A stretch of 64,000 nt of DNA from an uncultured Planctomycetaceae bacterium (GCA_963833985.1 CAWIAD010000001.1:192001-256000); one strand, 5' to 3'. Counted from the stretch's first letter, positions 51,379-64,000 are shown. Notes: a model not told the origin generated them from the sequence alone. A program made the numbers and translations.

Positions 51379-54102
51379 TCAGCGCCCGCGCCCGACAGGC
51401 ACCCAGGTGCTCATGGCCTGGCTGCGACGGCTCGCTCGAAAATGGCGCCACTTCGGCCCCGCAAGCCTCAGCTGTGGAGGCGACGGGACGATGTTGTGGC
51501 CGAGCTTTCGCCTCCACCAGCGACCCGCGAGCTGGCGCAAACGATAGGCGGCCGCGGAAACCACAATCAGACCGGTCGGCATGCCCAGGTCCGCCTCCGT
51601 CATGCGCTCCGCGGCAGTCGCCGCATGGCGATCGCCGCGCTCCGCGGCCGCATTGCTTCCAGACCGGGCAAGCAGCTCCGACGTTACCGGGCCGGCGGAT
51701 CCGCGCGCGCTCGACTGACCCTGGTCCGCCCCCAGCCAGCGGCCAAGACGGCCGGCGATTTCGGCGATCCGGTCGGCCCTGAGCAGCGCCAGGGCGTCTC
51801 CGTTATGCCTGCCGGCAAGCATCAAACGGGCATCCGCGGCTGGCCCGCCTTGCGCCTGGTCGGCTTCCCCGGCCACGACAAGGTTCTCGCTGGGCGTTGC
51901 GGAGGTGTTCGGGGCCTGTACATCGTGGCCGGACGAGCTCGGCGCCTGGAACGGGATACCAGGAAAGAGGGCGAGCGAACCGGTGGCCTGCGCGCTCCAG
52001 CCGCCCACCGCGCCGGTGCCGGCCGCGGCGAGTGGCTCGCTCACGATCGATGGTGTACCCAGCAATCCCGAGCTCACCGTCACCAGCAGGCTGGACGGAA
52101 CCACCGAGACGGCACCCGTATTCGCCACGGTCCCGCCGATGGAAGGGGCAGCGATCGCGGCAACGCCGGGCCCGGAGGGGCCCTGGTTCGAAGCGACGGC
52201 CGAAGACTGGTCGACGGTCCCCGTGATCCCTGCGTTCGTGCTCGGCGGAGCCGTGATCGTGGCGGGAGGTGAAGACGGCGACGCACCGAGCCGAAGGCTC
52301 AACGCGGCGCTCTGCCCCACGCCGTTATTGAGCAGGGACTCGTAGTCGATCAACGCCGTCTTGACGGACCAGAAGCCGACGGCTGACTCAGCCCCCAGCG
52401 AGGTGAAGCTCAGGAAATAGGTCCCCGCCGTCAGGCTCAACGTGTCGGTATGAGCCGTCCCGGCATCATCAGCATTCACGATGGTCAAGCCGTCCGGGCC
52501 GGCAACCACAACCTGCGCGGCTCCCTGGAGAAACGAGGTTTCCAGGGTATACAGGCCGGTCACCGGCGCGACAAAACGGCTCGTGACCTGGTGCCCAGGC
52601 AAGATCACGGTAGGCGGTGAGACGGCCGCCTGATGCGAGGGCCAGATGACGCCGAGGTTCCCGCTGGCGGTCGGCTGCGGCGCTGCGTCGGCCGGCACCG
52701 TGAACGTCGCCAGCACTCCCGGGATATGCCCCGCGGAAACCGGCGCACGGCCGGTGAGGTCGGTCATTCCGCCGCTTGCCGGCAGAACGACCGTGTACTG
52801 CCCGGGCGGCAAGGGCTGGTCGAAAACGAAGCTCACCAGGCTGCTGGAAGGCAGATATCCGGATGCAAAGAGCGGCCAGACCTTGCCCGCCGCGTCATAA
52901 ACCTGAACCGGAGAGCTCACCGCCGAGCTGGACCGCAAACTGTCCAGGGAGATGGGCCCCGAAAAGTTCAGGTTCATTCCGGTCGGCGATGATCCGAGGG
53001 GATCGCCCCATTGCAGCGTAAAGTTCGTGAGCTGGGTCAGGCTGTCCGCGGCATCGGCAACGACCCTGAGGTCGTAGCCACCGCCTGCTTGCTTCAGGCC
53101 GGCGGTGCCATTCGTTCCGGTCACGGGGTTGTAGCCGCCGGGCTGCCCTGCCAGGTTCCCCGCGCCCGAGAGTCCGATGTAGTAGACACCCGGAAGCAGC
53201 CCGGTGAACAGGTAGGGATCGTTCGGCGAACCAACAAGACCCGTGCCCGAATCTCGGGTTGCGAGTACATTGCCCTGCTGGTCGAAGAGAGTCAAGGCAC
53301 CCATGAGCGGACTGCCTATCCGCTGGGCGTTCAGCTCCGCGCCGAGCTGCCAGTAGTGGCCCGGACCAAGAGTCAACTTGTAGAGAGTAACGGAAGTCGC
53401 ACCACCCGTGAGGTCGAGCCATCCGGACGTGGAAACCACCTGAGAGCCGATAATTCCCAGGTCGGTCGCGTTGCTCAGCGTCGCACCCGAGGGTGTGACT
53501 GGAATACTGGGAGCGATCGTGAAATTCGCGAGCGTCTGATCGACGCTGGGATCCCATTGACCACCTGTGAGCGTAACAGGATCCGCTCCACTGAGATAAA
53601 CCGATAAGCCGGAGTCTCCGACGAGGACGATCCGGTAGTGGCCGGCTGGCAAGCTTGAGTCGATGGGAATCGTCGCCTGGGTCCCGGTGCCGTCGAACGA
53701 GGCAACCGGGGGATTGAGCGCGTCAAGGATCGGCGTTGTGGTGCCGTCCGAATTCACCTGCTCGAGTTGAATGTTCCCGTCTGTCCAGAGGAAATCTACC
53801 TCCTGGTTGAAGATGATCACCAGTGCATCCGGGGAATGGGTCATCGTTGAGCCGTCGGCCGGTGAGGTCGAGATCATGCTGGCGGCCGCGCTCAACGTTG
53901 CTCCCGCCTGGCTCGTGGAAGCGTCCGCAGGCTGGATCATCGCCACTCCCGGCGAGGCCTCGCCGGGCAGCAGCGCCGGTGAAAGCAAAACGGATGAGCC
54001 TGGCGTGGATCCGCCCGGTAGGGACAGCAACTGGCGCGGCTCCAGCCCCTCAAGGCTGAAGCCGCGTCCGGTCTTCATTCGACGTCGCAAGGCGCGGCTC
54101 AT
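51379..54102 (-). CDS. Surface protein with LEPR-xLL leader, Ig-like and PPC-like domains and C-terminal membrane anchor
   Basis: FSLEGLEPRQLLS; STSPADG; DPYLFTGLLPGVYYIGLSG; tail PTGLIVVSAAAYRLRQLAGRWWRRK. Confidence 0.8.
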   Translation of the reverse strand: MSRALRRRMKTGRGFSLEGLEPRQLLSLPGGSTPGSSVLLSPALLPGEASPGVAMIQPADASTSQAGATLSAAASMISTSPADGSTMTHSPDALVIIFNQEVDFLWTDGNIQLEQVNSDGTTTPILDALNPPVASFDGTGTQATIPIDSSLPAGHYRIVLVGDSGLSVYLSGADPVTLTGGQWDPSVDQTLANFTIAPSIPVTPSGATLSNATDLGIIGSQVVSTSGWLDLTGGATSVTLYKLTLGPGHYWQLGAELNAQRIGSPLMGALTLFDQQGNVLATRDSGTGLVGSPNDPYLFTGLLPGVYYIGLSGAGNLAGQPGGYNPVTGTNGTAGLKQAGGGYDLRVVADAADSLTQLTNFTLQWGDPLGSSPTGMNLNFSGPISLDSLRSSSAVSSPVQVYDAAGKVWPLFASGYLPSSSLVSFVFDQPLPPGQYTVVLPASGGMTDLTGRAPVSAGHIPGVLATFTVPADAAPQPTASGNLGVIWPSHQAAVSPPTVILPGHQVTSRFVAPVTGLYTLETSFLQGAAQVVVAGPDGLTIVNADDAGTAHTDTLSLTAGTYFLSFTSLGAESAVGFWSVKTALIDYESLLNNGVGQSAALSLRLGASPSSPPATITAPPSTNAGITGTVDQSSAVASNQGPSGPGVAAIAAPSIGGTVANTGAVSVVPSSLLVTVSSGLLGTPSIVSEPLAAAGTGAVGGWSAQATGSLALFPGIPFQAPSSSGHDVQAPNTSATPSENLVVAGEADQAQGGPAADARLMLAGRHNGDALALLRADRIAEIAGRLGRWLGADQGQSSARGSAGPVTSELLARSGSNAAAERGDRHAATAAERMTEADLGMPTGLIVVSAAAYRLRQLAGRWWRRKLGHNIVPSPPQLRLAGPKWRHFRASRRSQAMSTWVPVGRGR

Positions 54103-54222
54103 GAAGTCACCACGAATTCAAGTCGGGAAAAAGCCGGGAAGAGTGAGCATTTGCGGGCGAGGGACGATTCCAGGTTGCAAAGCGGAACGCCCGCGCGCCT
54201 TGACCGAATGTCTCCTGCGAGA

Positions 54223-55743
54223 TCAGTGCATTCGCACGACCTTCAGGGAGCCGCCGTGGGTCGGCGGCAGCAACTGGTTTTTCGGTTTCCAGTTCATGAG
54301 CAGGTGATCGACCGCCTGGAGGGTCGAGAGCGTCGAACCCGGATGAGCGGCCAGCAGGTGTCTCGGCGAGCTCAAGGTGCCGGATGGTAGGATCGTTGGG
54401 ATGGTCCGGGCATAGCTTGTCGTGGTGACCAGTGTGGTCGTGGCACCCGCTGGCTGTGCCTGCGACTGCGTGGGCGCGGCCATGGCGAGGTTCGGCGAGA
54501 GGGCTCCCCCTCCATTCGATCCACTGCCACCATTCAAGATTGTTGCGTCGAGCACGTTGCCAACGGCGGTGAGGTTGCCGATGGTGACAATCTGGACGGG
54601 AGCGCTTGCTCCGCCCCCGCCCTGATCAGGCTGCTGGGCCACGACCGTGTTCGGCGGGGCGATGGGCGGCTGGTAGACCGAGCCGAAATTGAGCTCGAGC
54701 CCGAATCCTCCGGTTGACGAGCCCAGGCCCGTCCCGTTGGCGCGAATGAAATAGCTCTGCCCGGGCGCCACTCCGGCGATCGAGACCGAGGCCGTCCCGC
54801 CGAATGCCGTTGACGTCGCCGTGGCGAGGGGCTTCAACCCGGACGTGTAGACGTAGACAACCGGGCTGAGGCTGCTCAGGTTGCTGGACTGCACCGTGGC
54901 AACCATTGTGCCGCTGGTGGAGCTGGGGACCGTAACCTTGAACCACTCGGCCTGGCTGCCGGAGGTGATATCCAGGCTTGGAATTGCCACCTGTCCATTA
55001 CTATCGATGTAGCTGTTCAGGTTCGTCGCTTTGGCATAGTTGCTGTTCGACAGGCCGTTACTGTTGAACTGATCGTACTGCGAGGCGCCCCAGACAGATT
55101 GGATGCCCGCGACGTCGTCGCTGGTGAGCGACTGCTTCATGCCGTTGTAATAGGCGTACATGCAGGCCGTGGTGATCTGCGATTCGCCCAGACCCAGCGC
55201 GTGGCCGAACTCGTGGATGGCCACGGTCTCCAGGTCGTAATTGCTGTTGATCTGCCAGGTCACGTTCGGGTTGGTGTTCAGGAACATATCACCGGCGTCG
55301 GTGCCGCCGTTGTAGGGCGGAGGCAGGAAGGTCTCGCCCAGTGCACCGGTACCAAGGTTCACTCCGCCGATGCGGATATCGCCGAACCGCGGGTCGTCTT
55401 GCTGGTTGCCGTTGCACGCTTCCGGACTGCCATTGTCGGAGACCAGAGCCAGGTTGATGTTCGCGACCGCTTCCCATACGGAGGCGGCCTTCTCGATGGC
55501 CCCCTGCCAGGCGGCCGTCGAGAACTTGGCGTTCATCGTGGAATTGAGGTTGCTGGGAGTGCCGCCGATGGAGGTTCCATCGGGCATGAAGCTGTAGGTG
55601 ATCCGGCTGCCGAAGACGAAATGACCGCCATACGCGGAATAAAGCAGGAGACGGTCCTCCAGACCTTCCAGTAAGGGACGCGTGGATCGCTTCGGGGATC
55701 GCTCGCCGGACCTTGATTTCGACGGACGTAAGTGAAAGAGCAT
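54223..55743 (-). CDS. Matrixin (M10A-like) metalloprotease with planctomycete leader and PPC domain
   Basis: LEGLEDRLLL; ITYSF.PDG; GDIRIGG; DLETVAIHEFGHALGLGES; Met-turn CMY; DDVAGIQSVWG. Confidence 0.88.
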   Translation of the reverse strand: MLFHLRPSKSRSGERSPKRSTRPLLEGLEDRLLLYSAYGGHFVFGSRITYSFMPDGTSIGGTPSNLNSTMNAKFSTAAWQGAIEKAASVWEAVANINLALVSDNGSPEACNGNQQDDPRFGDIRIGGVNLGTGALGETFLPPPYNGGTDAGDMFLNTNPNVTWQINSNYDLETVAIHEFGHALGLGESQITTACMYAYYNGMKQSLTSDDVAGIQSVWGASQYDQFNSNGLSNSNYAKATNLNSYIDSNGQVAIPSLDITSGSQAEWFKVTVPSSTSGTMVATVQSSNLSSLSPVVYVYTSGLKPLATATSTAFGGTASVSIAGVAPGQSYFIRANGTGLGSSTGGFGLELNFGSVYQPPIAPPNTVVAQQPDQGGGGASAPVQIVTIGNLTAVGNVLDATILNGGSGSNGGGALSPNLAMAAPTQSQAQPAGATTTLVTTTSYARTIPTILPSGTLSSPRHLLAAHPGSTLSTLQAVDHLLMNWKPKNQLLPPTHGGSLKVVRMH

Positions 55744-55976
55744 TCGAACGCTCCGTGCTTCTCCTCGATGTGTTGTCTGCACTAGCTGACACACGGACTT
55801 GAGACGAAAAAAGTGAAGTTGCGAGTCGGCGTACGCACCGGGACCCAGTTGGTGTCTGATGTCCTGGCGCTTTCTAAGGGAACACTAGGTCCCATTCCCA
55901 GCCAGGGCGGGCATGGTGAGAAGCGGAAACACCAGGGCCAGGCCGGCACGCGAGAGCCTCCTGGCACAAGAAGGCA

Positions 55977-57716
55977 GGGTGTAAGACACGGTTCGTTTTT
56001 CTGAGGTCCTACGCCGCTTTCCCAGTTTCCCTGGCTTTATAGTTGCGGAAGGGGCTGCTGGGCCTCTCTTTGAGGTACCGATCCAGGCGTCCGTCCTCCG
56101 AGAGGAACGACGCTCGAAGCTGAAGCATCGTCTCGGCACCGGCGTCGCTCCAGAATTTCTCCGACCCCTTGACCCGCCGGTTGAAGATCTTCACGGTCGA
56201 CTCCACGTGACTGCTCGTCCACGGCAATCCCCCGCGTCGATAAGCAGGGTAGTCCATCCGCTCTCGATTATGCTCCAGGTAGCCGAGTTCTTGGGCGATG
56301 ATCTTGCGCGGGTCATCGTCGGCCAGCCGTTCGAGCTCGTCTCCGGATAAGGACGCCTGGGCATCTCGCAGGGTACGGAGTTCCTCGATCACCTGGCCCA
56401 CGCGTCCCTTCCAGCAGGCCTCTGCCCATGCCTGGAACAACTCCCAGCGGCCTTCGGTCTCGACCGCCGCAGCCTTGGCGGCCGCGAACAGGTGACCCAG
56501 GGCGTGGAGAAAATCAACGATGGCCAGAAAGGTCGGAAAATGCCGTTGCTGCAATTTCCAGATCCAGGCCGAGCCGTCCCCCAGGAACGCCCGATGAGCC
56601 GCTTTCATGAGATTGCGTCGCCACGCCTCCGCGGCCACCATCGGCCCGAATTGCTCGCTGGAGCAGGTGCTCGCCACGTAAGTCCGCACCACCAGTTCGG
56701 GCCTTTCCCTCGGCTCGGACCGATCCCCGGGGGACGGCAGAGATGCTTCGTCGATGTTCTCCGCCGGGGCCTCCTGTAGGCCCATCGAGCTCGCCCCGCT
56801 GATCCCGCCGACAAGCTTCTCGACGTATCCCCGGTCGCGGTAGCAGGCGGGCAACTCCGGCTCCGGGTCGCAGTCCGAGACGACATTGGCCATGGTGGCC
56901 AGAATCGCGATCTTGTCCTCACGCCAGGACGCATCATGGGCACCGGGCCCTTCCCCCTGGCCGCGAATCTGCAGCCGGCCGCCGTCAACCTCGACCACTG
57001 CCAGAGCCGGCCGTGTCTCGACTCGCGGCTCGAGCTTATGGGCTTGAAGTTCGCTCACATGCTGATCTCTCTCGGCCTGCAATTGTTGGCCGACCTCCTG
57101 GGCGATGCGGCCGATCTGCCGACTGCCGATGGTCACCTCGGCCAATTCCGCCATCGCCTCGGCCGCCTCCCGGAAGGAGGGCTCCCGGGCACCGCAACGG
57201 ACGATCTTGCGCAGCACCGAAGGGCTGTAGTCATGTGGCGTGAGGCGCAAGGCCGGACGCTGAGGGAAAAAAATCCCGGCGACATGCCGGGCAGTGGCAC
57301 TTCGGTTCGGCGTAGGTGACCTTGCCTCCCCAGAATTCAATGGTTCGATCGTTGCGTTGCACCGGACAGAGCCGCTTGCAGTTGGGACAAGGCTGCTCGG
57401 CCCCCAAGAGGGAGGCTTTCTGCTTCAGGAGTTCCTCGATGGTTCCCTTGGCCACGGCACAGGCCGCGGTCATGGCCATTTGTTCCATGTCGTCGGCATC
57501 GAGGTCCAGGTCAGGCCCAACTTCTTCGTGGACCCGTCGCGCCACAGTTTTCCCCCACCCTTTGGCCATCTGCTCGACCCCGGTGCGATCCATCGATGGT
57601 GACTTACGGAAAGGCATAGCAGGTCCCTCCTTGGACTTCCGGTGACGGACAATTTGGGAAACTTGACTTGACATGCTACCACCGGCCTCGGGCGGCGCGA
57701 ACCGCGTCTTACACCC
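55977..57716 (-). mobile_element. Complete ISKra4-like insertion sequence, 1740 bp
   Basis: Terminal IRs GGGTGTAAGAC(A/G)CGGTTCG at 55977-55995 and 57698-57716; 9-bp target duplication AAGAAGGCA at 55968-55976 and 57717-57725. Confidence 0.9.
56009..57617 (-). CDS. ISKra4-like DDE transposase in two frames joined at a T7 run
   Basis: orfA 57231-57617 has CPNC...CHCPACRRDFFP; orfB has VEVDGG, WREDK, LGDGSAWIW, VDFLHA, RMDYP.YR..GLP..SS.VES. Confidence 0.88.
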
Positions 57717-57842: not shown

Positions 57843-58928
57843 ATGGATACGCACCCTGCCCCCAAGCCAGATTCCCCGATCGCCACGACGACCGTGACTG
57901 AAGCCAGATCCGACGCCGACCGAAGCCCGCAGCTCGGCGCGTTGCCGCAACCCCGATACTCCATCGCCGCGGTCTCGAAGCTGACCGGAATCAGTTGCCA
58001 TACCCTGCGGGTCTGGGAACGGCGCTACGGATTTCCCGTTCCCGAGCGGTCGGCGTCAGGCCACCGTCGTTACGACGGCGCGCAGGTGCAGACACTCTGC
58101 CGCATCTCCGAGTTGAACCGGTCCAGCCGGCAATCGATCGGCGAGCTGATCTCCCGCGTCGGCGGCGAGGAAGCGAAGACGGAAGAGCTCGCCGTGCCCG
58201 GCGCGGCGTCGGCCGAGGAGGCGGCCCGCAGCCGCCTGGTCGGCAAGCTGATCCTGGGAGACTATTTGGAAGCGGAGCGTGAATATGCCGGACTCACCAC
58301 CCGCCTGGATCCCTGGGGCATCGTCAACCACGTGATTCATCCGGTTCTGATCGAAGCCGGTGAAGGATGGTTTCGAAAGTGCCATTCGGTCTTCCAGGAG
58401 CGGCTCATCACGGTATTCATGAGACAGAAGCTGGTCTTGATGATCCAGGCCGCCCGCGAGGCGAATCTCCAGCCCACGCGGAGCGTGATCGCGGGAACCG
58501 TGCAGGGAGACCGTCACGAGGGCGGGGTCCTGATGTTCAACCTGGTGATGGAGATGCGCGGCTGGAGGGTGTACAACCTTGGAGTGGATGTTCCCGTGCG
58601 CGAATACGGCCTGGCCATCGAGCGGCTACGCCCGTCCGCACTGGCGCTCTCGTTCGTGCTCTCGCGGAACATCAAGAAGCGATTCCAGGAGTTGCAGCAG
58701 ATTCAGGCTGTTCCCGTCTTCGTCGGCGGCCGGAGTATCGTGAACTATCAATCCATGGCACGAAGCCATGGACTGATCCCGCTTGTCGGGCCGATCCTGA
58801 AGTCGACCGACCAGCTTGAAGCAGGATTTGGCCGCTGGTCCCTCCGCCGCGGTGCGGACAGCGAAGCACCGGAGACCGTCACCCAACAAGAAAGGCGACC
58901 TGCTTCGCCGGGAAGCAGCTCGCCTTGA
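57843..58928 (+). CDS. MerR-family regulator with B12-binding domain (CarH/LitR-like); alternative start 57783
   Basis: YSIAAVSKLTGISCHTLRVWERRYG...SGHRRY; GDRHEGG; GWRVYNLG; ALS; VFVGG. Confidence 0.88.
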   Translation: MDTHPAPKPDSPIATTTVTEARSDADRSPQLGALPQPRYSIAAVSKLTGISCHTLRVWERRYGFPVPERSASGHRRYDGAQVQTLCRISELNRSSRQSIGELISRVGGEEAKTEELAVPGAASAEEAARSRLVGKLILGDYLEAEREYAGLTTRLDPWGIVNHVIHPVLIEAGEGWFRKCHSVFQERLITVFMRQKLVLMIQAAREANLQPTRSVIAGTVQGDRHEGGVLMFNLVMEMRGWRVYNLGVDVPVREYGLAIERLRPSALALSFVLSRNIKKRFQELQQIQAVPVFVGGRSIVNYQSMARSHGLIPLVGPILKSTDQLEAGFGRWSLRRGADSEAPETVTQQERRPASPGSSSP

Positions 58929-59001: not shown

Positions 59002-59778
59002 TCAGTGCTGAGGAGCAGCCTTGGCCGGAGCATAGGGTGCCGCGGACTGAGGAGCCGGGGCGACCTTGGCCGGGGCCATGGGTGCCGCGGACTGAGGAGC
59101 CGGGGCGACCTTGGCCGGAGCCTGGGGAGCCGGGGCGACCTTGGCCGGAGCCTGGGGAGCCGGGGCGACCTTGGCCGGAGCCTGGGGAGCCGGGGCGACC
59201 TTGGCCGGAGCGTAAGGAGCCGGCGCCATCTTGGCCGGAGCCTGGGGAGCCGGGGCGACCTTGGCCGGAGCGTAAGGAGCCGGGGCCATCTTGGCCGGAG
59301 CCTGGGGAGCCGGGGCGACCTTCGACGGCGCGTAAGGAGCAGCCGCCTGAGGAGCCGGGGCGACCTTCGAGGGCGCCTGGGGAGCCGGGGCGACCTTCGA
59401 GGGCGCCTGGGGAGCCGGGGCGACCTTCGACGGCGCGTAGGGAGCCGGCGCCATCTTGGCCGGAGCCTGAGGAGCCGGGGCGACCTTCGACGGCGCGTAG
59501 GGAGCCGGCGCCATCTTGGCCGGAGCCTGAGGAGCCGGGGCGATCTTCGAGGGCGCCTGGGGAGCCGGAGCGATCTTCGAGGGCGCCTGGGGAGCCGGGG
59601 CGACCTTGGAGGGCGCCTGAGGAGCCGGGGCGACCTTGGAGGGCGCCTGAGGGGCCGGGGCGACCTTGGCCGGAGCCTGAGGAGCCGGGGCGACCTTCGC
59701 CGGAGCCTGAGCCGCAGGATAAGCCTGAGGGCTCTGTCCTGGCAGGCTCAGGGCAAGAACTAGAACCGCACTGGTCAT
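59002..59778 (-). CDS. Exported Pro/Ala-rich decapeptide-repeat protein, [APAP(Q/Y)AP(A/S)K(V/M/I)]n
   Basis: AGAGGA RBS; short hydrophobic N-terminus MTSAVLVLALSL; about 22 repeats; no Asp or Glu. Confidence 0.8.
   Translation of the reverse strand: MTSAVLVLALSLPGQSPQAYPAAQAPAKVAPAPQAPAKVAPAPQAPSKVAPAPQAPSKVAPAPQAPSKIAPAPQAPSKIAPAPQAPAKMAPAPYAPSKVAPAPQAPAKMAPAPYAPSKVAPAPQAPSKVAPAPQAPSKVAPAPQAAAPYAPSKVAPAPQAPAKMAPAPYAPAKVAPAPQAPAKMAPAPYAPAKVAPAPQAPAKVAPAPQAPAKVAPAPQAPAKVAPAPQSAAPMAPAKVAPAPQSAAPYAPAKAAPQH
59017..59712. repeat. 30-bp coding tandem repeat array, about 22 units
   Basis: Unit ggagccggggcgaccttggccggagcctg(g/a) with variants. Confidence 0.95.
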
Positions 59779-60359
59779 CGCGATGTCCTCTGTGAAGAGT
59801 GAGGTTGTCGGTCGACGTCTCGATCGAGTCGGTAAGCTGACATTCCCCTGATGGCTCGGCACGGCCGATGCTGAACAACGTCCGATCGCCAACACCACCG
59901 TTCCTGTCGTCGTTCTCTGGCCCGACCCATCGAGGCCGGGGCAGGAATCTTGTCCCTTGTCCGCAAACGGGACAATCCACGAAGGCCTCGGTTCGGTGGC
60001 GGAGGCCTCAAGCCGGTCATCTTGGCCGACTCTCGCTCTCCACCCCAGGGGTGGCCAATGCTGGTTATCGGCATCCGACTTCGATCCGTTTACTGAACTT
60101 GAGAAATTCGATAAGCTGCCAGTCCGGGGAACTCTAGGGGCTATGACGAGTATCCAGAGATTGGGCGACCGCGCATGGTCAATTGGTATCGACCTTGGGC
60201 CTTCACGATGCCGAACCATCACAGGGCATTTGAGGAAGCGACGTCGATCCCATAGGATGGAGATTCCCAGTAGGTGTTGGGGACACGGGCGTCCCCTGTG
60301 AGACCTGGGAATCAAGAGTCATCGGCGTATGTAACTCAACACCGGTATTGGGAGGCAGC

Positions 60360-61917
60360 ATGCGTATTGGCATCCGGCTGGGTGGCTCACTGACATGGGC
60401 GCTCATTGCCGTCCTGGGAATGGCCGCCGGGGCTCAGGCCGCGGACCGCGTCATCATCCCTCTGGGTGGTGTGCTGGAAGATCAGTCCGGTGACCATCAT
60501 TTCGGTGTGTACGTCCCGACGCGGTTCGGCGGCGAGCTCACCGTGACGGCGACCGAGGGGCAGGTCGTCGAGCTCAAGGGGCCAAACGGACAGCAGCGGA
60601 CGAACGGTCAGGACGTTGGACTGGATCAGCACGGCTGGTACACGTTCAAGGTCGTGGGCGGCGCACAAGCCCTACAAGGTGGAAACCCGGTTCGTGCAGG
60701 CGGCACAGAGCCTGAAGAAACCCTGGAATTTCTACTACTGGCCCACCAAGGCGGACTCGATTCACGAGCCCTGGGCCGGCGGCAACGGCCGCGTGGACAT
60801 CGATTACACGATGCTCCGCGGCGACGATGAGTTGATCCGGGCGCCGGGGAGCTATATTCCGCCGGGTGAGGACATTGTCCGGGCCGGCCCCAACGGCTTG
60901 CTCGAATCGCTGCCGCCGGCCGGCGACGACGCCACGTGGTTCCCAAACCTTTACGACGACCTCACGTGGGTGGGCCCCAACAAGGAGAAAGGCGGCGAGG
61001 TCACGATCTTCCAGACGCCTTCCCCGTTGCTGAAGTATGACCAGATCTTCAACTCCCAGGCCCGCTGGTGGGAGTCGGTGAACAGTCAGAATAAGGAGAT
61101 CACCCGCTGGCCCGGCCACTGCCTGGGCGGAGCCGTGGCGTCGATCCTGCTGAACGAGCCGATCCCGGCCCCGGGAAGCGGCATGACGCGCGATGAGCTC
61201 AAGGCCCTCTGGGCCGAGCTCGGAGAGAACCACCTGAACCACCGCATCGGCGACTATGCCAACGAGATTCCCCCGGGCCCTCCCCGTCCCGGTCCCGATG
61301 AATGCGACTGGAAGGCGCCCCGCGTGCACGCCATGTTCGAGAGCCACATCCGCGGCGAGCGGAAGGCGCTGCTGGGCAACATGCGGGCGTTCCCTCCGCG
61401 TGGCACGATCACCGAGGTGTGGAACCAGGGAATCTACAAGTACGTCGCCGAGTACAAGGCCATCCCGCACCGCGGCCCCCGCGCCGTCAACATCAAGCTC
61501 GAGCTGCACACCAACTCGGGATCGATGCTCAACGGTCAGGACGACAAGGACCGCGTGATTTACTACGAGTACAACCTCGTTTACGGTCTCGACGGCAGGG
61601 TGGACGAGACCAACCCGGCCGCGGCGGACTGGGTCTCCGTGGGTGGCGAAGCACTCTTCGCCCCGCTCAACGTCCTGGAGCTCGTGGAGTCGCGCTGGCA
61701 AGGGCATAACCCCTACGTGACCGAAACCAACGTGCGGGCGCTCGACCTCGCCAACGGCGGCGGTGGCGGACGCCTGGCCGCCGTGGCCCCGCGGTTTCGT
61801 CCCGTCAAGGAGTACGAGGGGAATCGCTCCGTCTCCCCCACGATGTTCGCCTCTGGCAACTCGAACGGCGGACCTCGCCGCGGCTTCTTCGGCAGGTTCT
61901 TCGGACTTGGCCGCTAA
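60360..61917 (+). CDS. Secreted protein resembling the transglutaminase-elicitor (GP42-like) family; frameshift near 60660
   Basis: GGAGG RBS; signal peptide ...AGAQA; PWNFYYWP, SPLLKYDQ, WPGHCLGGAVASIL.NEP, ELKAL, EVWNQ, YEYNL in family order. Confidence 0.65.
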
Positions 61918-62319
61918 GCAGGAAACAGGACGTCTCCCAAGCCGCCCCGAGACCGAACGCCTCCCCTACCACATCGCCCGGCTCCGTCATCGGGTTATAC
62001 CGAACCGGAGCCGGGCGGTTTCGTTTCCGCGGCGGTCGCGCCGGTCCTCCCGGTCATCGCGATGGTCGCAGTCGGGCCGGATCTCGGAGTCGTGACACTG
62101 CCAGACCCGCACCGCTGGCGCCCGTCTTTTCGATTTCGTTATCCTCGGCACTGTTGTTCAAGTTTGCCGCGGCCGCTGGACGATCAAGTAAGCCGAGAGG
62201 GCCAGCAGTTCCAGAGCATGCGGCGCCGGCCCTTTCGCGAAGGCCGGACGCGCGGCCCCGCAGGCCCCTGGTCGGGTCGCAACTTGAGCATAGGGCGGTG
62301 GAACGAGCGAGGTGCAGCC

Positions 62320-62865
62320 ATGACATCGAGCGAAGCTCTTCCGACGGTCGTTCTGCCCCTGGAGACCCCCATCCTGGGGGGTCATCGTGGGCTGGTGATG
62401 CACGGGCTGCCGGTCCTGATCCTTGTTCCTCATGTGCGCCCGCAACCGGGCAGAAGGCCAATCGCCCCGCGCCGGACCCGACAGTCGCCAGCGCCCGGTC
62501 GATCGCGCCGGGCACGCCGGCGGCTCCGCCGGCCGGTCCGTATCGCGGCGTATGCACTCGTGGCCTTACTGGCGATGGTGCTGGTGGGCAGAGAGTGCGG
62601 ACCATCGCGGATCCCGCTCCATCCCGGATCGCGGCTGCTCTCGCTGCCGCCCCGCCTGGCGGCGCTCAGCTCGCCTGCCCAGGCGGACGCCAGCGACTGG
62701 CCTGCCGCGGAGGCCCGGCCCGTGCCTGGGTCGCCTTCCCCGGTGATGCTCTGGGTCGAGCCCCTGGGGTCGGCCGTCGATTCTGACACCCCTGCCCCGG
62801 TCGTGTTTCCGGGCTACCTGCTGCCCGACGATCGTCACGAGGAGCCGGTCCATGAGGGAAGTTGA
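62320..62865 (+). CDS. Hypothetical membrane protein (start uncertain)
   Basis: GAGGTG RBS; Arg-rich patch then TM IAAYALVALLAMVLV; tail PVVFPGYLLPDD; overlaps the next start. Confidence 0.6.
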   Translation: MTSSEALPTVVLPLETPILGGHRGLVMHGLPVLILVPHVRPQPGRRPIAPRRTRQSPAPGRSRRARRRLRRPVRIAAYALVALLAMVLVGRECGPSRIPLHPGSRLLSLPPRLAALSSPAQADASDWPAAEARPVPGSPSPVMLWVEPLGSAVDSDTPAPVVFPGYLLPDDRHEEPVHEGS

Positions 62866-63661
62866 TGAAGCCCTGACGCATGCCTACGCCCAGCGCAGCG
62901 CCGCCAGCCCCGCGCAGTCCGTGCCTCCCTCGCCGCACTGGTTGGGCCGCACCGCAGGACCGCACAAGCCGCCGGGAATGATTGCTCAGCCCGCTCTGCC
63001 GGGCCGGACGGCCGAAACGGACCCGGAGGCAGCAAGCGTACTGGCCTGGCCAGGCATTGTCCTGGTTCTCGAGCAGCGCTGGGGCCAGCGCTTCGAGGAG
63101 ATGGCGGAACGGCTGCTGGAAGCGCGCGACCGGCAGCACCTGAAGGCGCTGCTGTTCACGAGTTGCCATCGGTCGGAAGGACGCACCACGCTGGTTCTGA
63201 CTCTCGCCCGCGCCCTGGCCCGCCGTCCTTTCCGCACCGTCATCGTCGATGCCGACCTTACCGGTCCCATGCTCGCGCACGCGCTGGGAGTCAGGACCGA
63301 GGTCGGGCTGGAAGACGTGGTGATGGACGGGCAGGCGCTCGCCGACGCGCTCATCCATGCGGTCGACGACCACCTCTGGCTCTTGCCCATGCGCACGGCC
63401 GCGGCAAGCCCTCGCGAGCTGCTGTCCAGCCCGGGCTGGTCCTGCACGATGGCCAGGCTGCGCCGGGAGTTCGACCTGGTGCTGCTGGACGGCAGCCCGC
63501 TCTTTACCGGTCTGAGCGCCGCGGTCCTGCACCGCTCGGTGGACGCCGCGGTGCTCGTCCACCATCGCGGTATGACCGGCGAGCGCGCCCTGGTGCGCGC
63601 GCGAGAGGTTCTCGATGCCGGTGGGATTCCCCTGCTTGGACTCGCCGAGACCTTTGTGTGA
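62852..63661 (+). CDS. CpsD/CapB (Wzc C-terminal)-like P-loop protein
   Basis: LLFTSCHRSEGRTT; IVDADL..P; FDLVLLDGSP; VDAAVLV. Confidence 0.8.
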   Translation: MREVDEALTHAYAQRSAASPAQSVPPSPHWLGRTAGPHKPPGMIAQPALPGRTAETDPEAASVLAWPGIVLVLEQRWGQRFEEMAERLLEARDRQHLKALLFTSCHRSEGRTTLVLTLARALARRPFRTVIVDADLTGPMLAHALGVRTEVGLEDVVMDGQALADALIHAVDDHLWLLPMRTAAASPRELLSSPGWSCTMARLRREFDLVLLDGSPLFTGLSAAVLHRSVDAAVLVHHRGMTGERALVRAREVLDAGGIPLLGLAETFV

Positions 63662-63701
63662 ACGGCGCGATCGGATGTTCGCGCAAAACCGTGGAGACGG
63701 T

Positions 63702-64000
63702 GTGTACGAGAACCACTTCGGCCTGCGGAGCCGGCCCTTCGACGAGACGACGAGCCCGGCGGCATGCATCGAGCTGCCCAGCCGCGCCGCCGTGCTCCGC
63801 CGGCTGTGCTACGGCCTCGAGCATCGCCGTTCTCCGGCCGTCCTGTTCGGCCCTTCCGGCTCGGGCAAGACGCTGATTGCCGGCGTGCTGGCGTCCCGGC
63901 TGGGCAGCCCCTCGGTTCACGTGACGTACCCCGCACTTCCCGCCGAGGAACTCCTGATCGTGCTGACCACCGAACTGTGCGGGCAGAGCCCGGAGCCGCG
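63702..64000 (+). CDS. ExeA/GspA-family AAA ATPase (3'-partial; absent from the ORF track)
   Basis: GTG start; YENHFGLRSRPF...LRRLCYGL...LFGPSGSGKTL. Confidence 0.85.
   Translation, partial: MYENHFGLRSRPFDETTSPAACIELPSRAAVLRRLCYGLEHRRSPAVLFGPSGSGKTLIAGVLASRLGSPSVHVTYPALPAEELLIVLTTELCGQSPEP

Follow-up and report, generated by a model that had tools for sequence, protein, structure and literature searches.

How would a bacterium hold its envelope together with protein, and could it encode the enzyme that welds such a layer beside the protein to be welded? The question is raised by two divergent genes in a stretch of 64,000 nucleotides, hereafter the window, from an uncultured Planctomycetaceae bacterium (GCA_963833985.1 CAWIAD010000001.1:192001-256000), which named matches place in the Isosphaeraceae (hereafter the family), with 83% identity to an Aquisphaera giovannonii protein. 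On the minus strand, positions 59002..59778 encode a 258-aa protein of Gln/Lys/Pro/Ala decapeptide repeats, a candidate transglutaminase substrate that would act as both acyl donor and acceptor. On the plus strand, the enzyme gene starts at 60360, 582 nt from the repeat gene, ends at 61917 and comes in two pieces, namely (i) a 5′ piece (60360..60659) with a hydrophobic leader and a PPC/collagen-binding-like beta-sandwich, at whose end lies a frameshift, and (ii) a 3′ piece (60661..61917) with a GP42-like papain-fold catalytic domain (His-Cys at 61117-61122, Trp-Asn at 61420-61425). The original prediction, made from the sequence of the window, had described an exported protein of about 22 units with Lys, Gln (sometimes Tyr) and no acidic residue, opposite a secreted partner with PW..YYWP, SP..KYD, W.G.C and VWNQ motifs; these sequence features were recovered, the motifs being PWNFYYWP at 60721, SPLLKYD at 61021, WPGHC at 61108 with the Cys codon at 61120, and VWNQ at 61417.

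On balance, the two genes are read here as a dedicated transglutaminase-substrate pair building an isopeptide-crosslinked protein mesh in the envelope, a candidate assignment weighed on fold, sequence and gene order. The enzyme would rather probably be a cysteine transglutaminase that is secreted and belongs to a branch of the GP42 superfamily in which His precedes Cys (GHC), with the divergent repeat protein as its dedicated substrate, and sequences and models suggest that cells of the family weld this protein into a covalent envelope mesh. The established part of this reading comprises the fold, the conserved Cys, His, Asp and Asn, the family-wide head-to-head linkage and the strict Lys and Gln composition. 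The pair is real and conserved, and apparently undescribed; an account of it was not found in the full-text literature, a scope that excludes subscription journals and supplements, where annotation tables could mention it.

Fold and active site of the enzyme

The resemblance to GP42 (TGase_elicitor, PF16683) had been proposed from the order of the motifs, together with a structural comparison as the check. This comparison was performed with Foldseek among others, both on the catalytic piece of the window and on an intact relative (P0004), and GP42 came out as the top match each time. AlphaFold returned a pLDDT of 91.1 for the 415-residue catalytic piece and of 90.6 for P0004. The catalytic piece superimposed on GP42 of Phytophthora sojae (3TW5) with a Z of 18.2 and an rmsd of 3.2 over 250 aligned residues, 3TW5 being the sole chain with Z >= 8 among 48,161 (runner-up at Z 6.9), and Foldseek gave GP42 at E 3.2e-5 with no other match under 0.001. 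The P0004 model behaved alike (Z 17.9, Foldseek E 3.2e-6). Direct sequence searches against solved structures (PDB), run with a single protein and three profiles, gave nothing significant, and scans of Pfam and NCBIfam assigned no family; in the ESM Atlas, PF16683 was the best named cluster (0.87), a lead only. Distant homologs provide a bridge, i.e., 2 of 66 score above the PF16683 cut-off and five more below it, a profile including the window protein matches L097, another bearer of the GHC-type domain, at E 3.6e-18, and L097 in turn matches GP42 (E 3e-44), the GHC of L097 falling on the GP42 catalytic position in the alignment. As such, the proposed likeness stood as the only significant structural match, whereas membership did not: because the CH motif of GP42 is not kept and the score lies below the Pfam cut-off, the enzyme is called a GHC-type homolog rather than a PF16683 member and, from sequence and models, probably works like GP42.

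Both proteins are predicted to be exported from their N-terminal hydrophobic stretches; in the P0004 model, the leader forms helix 3-25, and the N-terminal domain that follows resembles PPC/collagen-binding modules (Z 8.9 to 5SV5). In relatives, the enzyme is one intact protein, mostly of 500-525 aa. Of note, many other bacteria also have the GHC-type domain, as the C-terminal part of long secreted proteins (P0130-P0273, L097-L145), where it is accompanied by Ig, PKD, dockerin, beta-propeller or beta-helix domains; none of these proteins was found to be characterised.

In GP42, a His stands immediately after the Cys, which is unusual, and contacts an Asn of the beta-2 strand or an Asp of a side helix (PMC10318531). 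In the enzyme, the motif reads WPGHCL, the His preceding the Cys. An alignment of 137 sequences, namely 52 from the family, 57 distant and 28 from searches of the phylum (three sequences lacking the motif having been removed), retained the catalytic Cys in 52/52, 54/57 and 28/28 sequences, respectively, counts that hold partly by construction because rows were cut around the G-x-C motif. In the same order, the His at Cys-1 was found in 52/52, 51/57 and 27/28, the Asn of W-N (N356) in 52/52, 52/57 and 27/28, Asp317 in 51/52, 54/57 and 21/28, and His324 in 51/52, 43/57 and 22/28, so that W-x-G-H-C, D317, H324 and W-N are conserved across all three groups. In the P0004 model, C255 opens helix 255-264, so that the Cys heads the core helix as in GP42, and N356 starts strand 354-368, aligned with VWNQ of GP42. 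Through L097, the family Cys aligns with the residue given as Ser in the crystal structure of GP42, and by hand alignment the GP42 Asp would correspond to E290 (51/52), with E287 as an alternative candidate for the acidic partner of the His. Because L097, much closer to GP42 than the enzyme is, also has GHC, sequence comparison identifies this as a form common in bacteria and not as decay.

The repeat protein and its linkage to the enzyme

The repeat gene is a 30-nt tandem array (TRF scores of 378 and 463). Behind a short hydrophobic leader without basic residue, for which a search returned one other candidate protein, come 22 xAP[AS]K units whose first residue is Q in 15, Y in six and M in one; the 258 residues include 22 Lys, 21 Gln and 7 Tyr, and neither D, E, R nor N. 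The ESM Atlas returned nothing usable for this protein. Among orthologs, the length of the unit and its filler vary (Ala/Val, Gly-rich or Cys-rich, e.g., PCPQAPTK in some) and Gln and Lys are kept throughout. Over 42 orthologs, from which two mis-called starts had been removed and in which five frameshifted tails were trimmed by a rule using Arg, K:R amounted to 629:1 and Q:E:N to 594:7:9; over the 36 needing no trimming, the counts were 574 K for 0 R, and 539 Q for 6 E and 9 N. A Gln lies four residues N-terminal of a Lys in 446 of about 594 cases. Since the repeat-detection scripts demanded Lys-containing motifs, and the scan of 60 loci also capped Arg and acidic residues per segment, the Lys/Arg counts carry some circularity. 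A transglutaminase substrate requires a primary amine and a carboxamide, and not equivalents in charge or size. Regular Gln and Lys were indeed found in an extended low-complexity chain, and from its sequence the repeat protein would thus match in its retained Lys and Gln what such a substrate needs.

Of the 120 family genomes compared with the source genome, 114 have the enzyme; among the good-quality ones, the source genome included, it is present in 46 of 47. It was found in none of 16 genomes from other families of the class, and related domains are sparse elsewhere in the phylum (18/350), often within larger proteins. From about 150 matches listed, 60 loci were fetched, chosen by flank length and genus spread, of which 48 carry a divergent Gln/Lys repeat gene. 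In another comparison, the same holds for 20 of 23 matching relatives; two more show the repeat gene with longer flanks, and the remaining locus is cut by a contig end. In G055 and G111, the pair is present at their other enzyme copy. Altogether, the pair was seen in 70 relatives, with a start-to-start spacing of 541-611 nt in 36 of 42 measured, and an exact two-unit pattern of the repeat DNA was detected in 55 of 73 genomes of the family and in none of 227 others. The synteny check that had been suggested thus returned a family-wide linkage. Because the genomes are kin, this conserved arrangement is, on sequence grounds, an ancient linkage and not independent co-evolution. On a quick tree, the 12 loci without a repeat gene fall into three groups, supported at 100, 94 and 99, and 11 of them are second copies in genomes that also hold the pair; the remaining one, from G066 (87% complete), clusters with such duplicates, in a genome without close matches to the flanking genes. 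Enzyme copies without adjacent repeat (L040, L043, L047, L050, L051, L078, L081, L082, L087-L090) have GHC and W-N intact.

In the proposed mechanism, back-to-back sigma-28-like promoters would drive both genes, a structured leader may support a high output of the repeat protein, and both products would be exported. The Cys of the enzyme would attack a Gln of the extended Pro/Ala chain, releasing ammonia and forming a thioester, which a Lys of another repeat chain would resolve into an epsilon-(gamma-glutamyl)lysine bond. With a Gln and a Lys recurring roughly every ten residues, the chains could form a multivalent mesh, which may also take in a second Gln/Lys repeat protein and the YTV-like wall proteins, themselves rich in Gln. 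What results would be an envelope layer of protein that withstands detergent, in the periplasm or at the surface. The stalk, one of the sites first envisaged for such a mesh, is improbable, as the family is described as having none (PMC5352709), and a role as stalk component was rejected on the same ground.

The second Gln/Lys repeat protein, with AAQAPAAPSKSYP-type units, an Ala-x-Ala leader and an acidic Pro-rich tail, is encoded elsewhere in the source genome (L092:5936-6745, i.e., G000:C2:1911935-1912744, plus strand), between a TPR gene and YTV-like Val/Thr/Gln repeat genes with which it is convergent. Such proteins were found at 17 of 19 relatives' loci inspected and are widespread in the family. 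The adjoining YTV-like gene (L092:6950-8693, minus strand) is split by a frameshift here and encodes a single protein of 457-659 aa in four relatives; L092:7581-8693 scores 14.2 bits (E 0.046) against PF07639, under the Pfam cut-off of 21 bits, hence YTV-like only. Its orthologs are rich in Gln (46-93 Q). Paralogs of the YTV-like gene exist; in G105 and G124, one of them lies downstream of the enzyme, at a distance of 12-13 kb.

Counter-evidence and rival explanations

Several observations weigh against a transglutaminase-substrate pair. On the side of the enzyme, the match to PF16683 amounts to 11.2 bits (E 0.7), on PWNFYYWP, for a Pfam cut-off of 25 bits; GP42 is the only solved member of the family found; papain-fold enzymes are mostly hydrolases; and the Pro of the Pep-13 segment is replaced by Gly or Ala in family sequences. 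Besides, the position after the Cys, His in GP42, is Leu in 52/52 family sequences. The GHCL context had been the declared caveat of the original prediction, and it is weakened by GHC being usual in the bacterial relatives examined. On the side of the substrate, the repeat counts are non-independent (175 distinct Lys contexts) and drawn from kindred genomes, a bias for Lys over Arg is also a feature of Pro/Ala/Lys repeats that are not crosslinked (e.g., AlgP and histone H1 tails), and a Gln/Lys repeat gene was not seen within 1.5 kb of distant homolog loci in other Planctomycetota. One genome, G072 (99% complete, two contigs), is without detectable enzyme and keeps a QAPxK repeat protein, at the locus of the second repeat protein; an assembly gap is possible there, because close matches to both genes flanking the enzyme are missing too. 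Lastly, Cys, Met, Pro and Trp are residues lost by routine acid hydrolysis or by primary-amine detection. The wall protein of Isosphaera pallida is reported to lack these very four (PMC3072084), which may mean "not determined" since they escape routine analysis; taken at face value, a wall without Pro would place a Pro-rich mesh outside the bulk sacculus.

The rival that survives best, although unlikely, is that the linkage reflects shared regulation only. The repeat protein would then be a cationic rod or matrix, binding acidic polysaccharides, spacing the periplasm or being modified by another enzyme, and the enzyme would target other proteins, e.g., the YTV-like wall proteins, whose richness in Gln would suit such a role. 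Back-to-back sigma-28-like promoters alone could preserve the arrangement, the QAPxK protein of G072 persists without detectable enzyme, the duplicate enzymes retain their catalytic motif without a neighbouring repeat, and the reported Isosphaera wall without Pro points the same way. However, charge alone would accept Arg, which the GC-rich genome prefers over Lys (8.7% vs 2.6% overall, and 5.1% vs 2.2% in Pro/Ala-rich segments), Gln stays beside Lys even in rewritten units, and enzyme and repeat protein share one family-limited range.

Less probable still is a papain-fold hydrolase, i.e., a peptidase, isopeptidase or Gln deamidase, trimming, shedding or deamidating the repeat protein. The loss of the GP42 CH motif and an identity to GP42 of just 14-18% in structure alignments would allow it, and the next structural neighbours of the catalytic piece are proteases such as IdeS and streptopain. 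These all remain at Z <= 6.9, though, far behind GP42, and hydrolysis leaves unexplained why Gln and Lys are retained in pairs, at about 1:1 and without Arg.

That the enzyme gene is a pseudogene in the source genome, the pair being inactive there whatever its relatives do, appears very improbable and would concern this assembly only. The frame is broken, as the original prediction had it; compared with all six same-genus sequences aligned (6/6), a single additional base is present at about 60659-60660. Yet the catalytic piece is free of stops and 81-90% identical to the best congeners, the YTV-like gene is frameshifted as well (2 of 15 probed loci of the assembly in all), and split enzyme matches also occur in several other assemblies of the family. 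With a second gene of the same assembly affected too, a pseudogene is less likely than an error in the assembly. Public sequencing runs contain at most a tenth of the words of the stretch; one DNA run and three RNA runs yielded contigs, from related organisms, that cover both genes and the leader and are silent on the frameshift, expression and habitat. A chance or wrong-frame repeat was rejected, the orthologs keeping the frame, an AGGA-type ribosome site and the leader, as was a RiPP precursor, a modifying cluster not being seen near the repeat gene.

Relation to known systems, intergenic region and neighbouring genes

The preferred reading, a transglutaminase with its substrate, finds its closest parallel in GP42 itself, a Ca2+-dependent cell-wall transglutaminase acting in oomycete walls (PMC9879208; bioRxiv 10.1101/2021.11.23.469665). 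From sequence and models, the two share the fold, the Cys at a helix start, W-N at the start of the Pep-13 segment, a D..H motif and, by prediction, secretion. Unlike GP42, the enzyme has its His before the Cys, a replaced Pep-13 Pro and a score below the Pfam cut-off, and it is larger by a PPC-like domain at the N-terminus and an insert of some 90 residues; it is also bacterial, near-universal in one bacterial family, and encoded head-to-head with a candidate substrate gene. In Bacillus subtilis, Tgl fortifies the protein layer of the spore coat through epsilon-(gamma-glutamyl)lysine bonds, with SafA/C30, GerQ and YeeK as substrates (PMC6490927). The analogy lies in the proposed role, i.e., a bacterial transglutaminase strengthening a protein layer, whereas Tgl belongs to a different enzyme family, is absent from the fold matches listed for the enzyme and acts in the mother-cell cytoplasm during sporulation. 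Tgl substrates are not known to include a pure Q/K repeat encoded head-to-head with the enzyme. Small proline-rich proteins and involucrin of the mammalian cornified envelope are likewise Pro/Gln/Lys(/Cys)-rich repeats serving as transglutaminase cross-bridges; unlike the repeat protein, they are intracellular and handled by another transglutaminase family, so that this likeness, as well as the comparison of the mesh with extensin, is meant as analogy and implies no homology.

Closer to the organism, an SDS-resistant protein wall has been described in planctomycetes since the 1980s, an Isosphaera study being among the citations, with YTV proteins described as containing Cys (PMC3422733, PMC12673574). 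A 2025 review considers envelope cohesion unexplained in those orders, this one included, from which most mur genes and ldt have disappeared (PMC12673574). The word transglutaminase does not occur in that review, and the passages of the other paper (PMC3422733) name none either. The likeness to this wall is that YTV-like genes adjoin the second Q/K repeat gene in the source genome; the difference is that the enzyme-repeat pair is confined to one family. A bolder proposal, conceivable but doubtful, is an isopeptide-crosslinked protein sacculus of the Isosphaeraceae, where the GHC-type GP42 transglutaminase would join both Gln/Lys repeat proteins and the Gln-rich filaments of YTV-like protein in a layer that bears load, under sigma-28 control in a genome without detected flagellin, supplementing or replacing peptidoglycan in a lineage from which most wall-synthesis genes are lost. 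If true, such a sacculus would be a bacterial counterpart of the cornified envelope. For the pair itself, the locus names the enzyme, its catalytic Cys and a candidate substrate motif (QAPxK), which makes isopeptide crosslinking directly testable in cultured species; if the reading is true, bacterial GP42-like enzymes would gain a first candidate for a substrate and a function, and the enzyme together with a short self-crosslinking tag would be of possible use in protein materials.

Between the two genes, the putative sigma-28-like promoter of the repeat gene (TAAA-N16-GCCGATAA, 60065..60092, minus strand) faces away from a variant sigma-28-like promoter predicted for the enzyme gene (TCGA-N17-GCCGAACC, 60189..60217, plus strand). 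On the repeat side, the motif T[ACG]A[AG]-N16-GCCGAT[AG]A lies about 295 nt before the gene and its -10 part occurs in 32 of 41 aligned intergenic regions; on the enzyme side, TC[CG]A-N17-GCCGAACC lies about 150 nt before the gene, with 25 matches over the 41 regions, two of them within one region. Both outward-facing motifs resemble the sigma-28 consensus. A sigma-70 promoter was looked for and none was found. One FliA/WhiG-family sigma factor scored above cut-off in the genome (L094, G000:C2:5220779-5221447), and flagellin gave no match in this genome (96% complete). Genome-wide, TAAA-N15/16-GCCGATAA is unenriched (32 found vs about 41 expected) and defines no regulon. Upstream of the repeat gene, a conserved leader of about 280 nt (59779..60058, minus strand) bears in its 5′ part (about 59984-60056) a branched hairpin in which both partners are altered in 9 of 19 pairs, more than in any of 500 shuffles or any slid control, the structure being derived from the same alignment as the covariation count. 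The folding energy of the whole leader is ordinary against shuffles (z -0.69), and an Rfam scan of it gave three matches, all far below gathering scores. Immediately upstream of the ribosome site, the leader contains a palindrome-like conserved block.

Downstream of the enzyme, the window encodes (62062-64000, plus strand) a small membrane protein, a Wzc/CapB-like P-loop protein (62852..63661, plus strand), a frequent neighbour whose membership in the system is putative, and an ExeA-like ATPase, an order found in most primary loci inspected. The Wzc-like and ExeA-like genes announced by the original prediction are thus real, though scoring below the family cut-offs (TIGR01007, 80.8 vs 108 bits; TIGR03015, 105.5 vs 324.5). 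On the other side, a CarH-like MerR/B12-binding regulator (57951-58928, plus strand) is convergent with the repeat gene and occupies the same place in several genera. Between it and a matrixin-like gene lie two overlapping ORFs (56009-57674, minus strand) with a weak UPF0236 match (E 0.015), presumably a transposase pair. Farther out, 51379-55794 (minus strand) encodes a secreted matrixin-like M10 metalloprotease and a large Ig-like/CopC-domain protein, which are near the pair in some relatives too.

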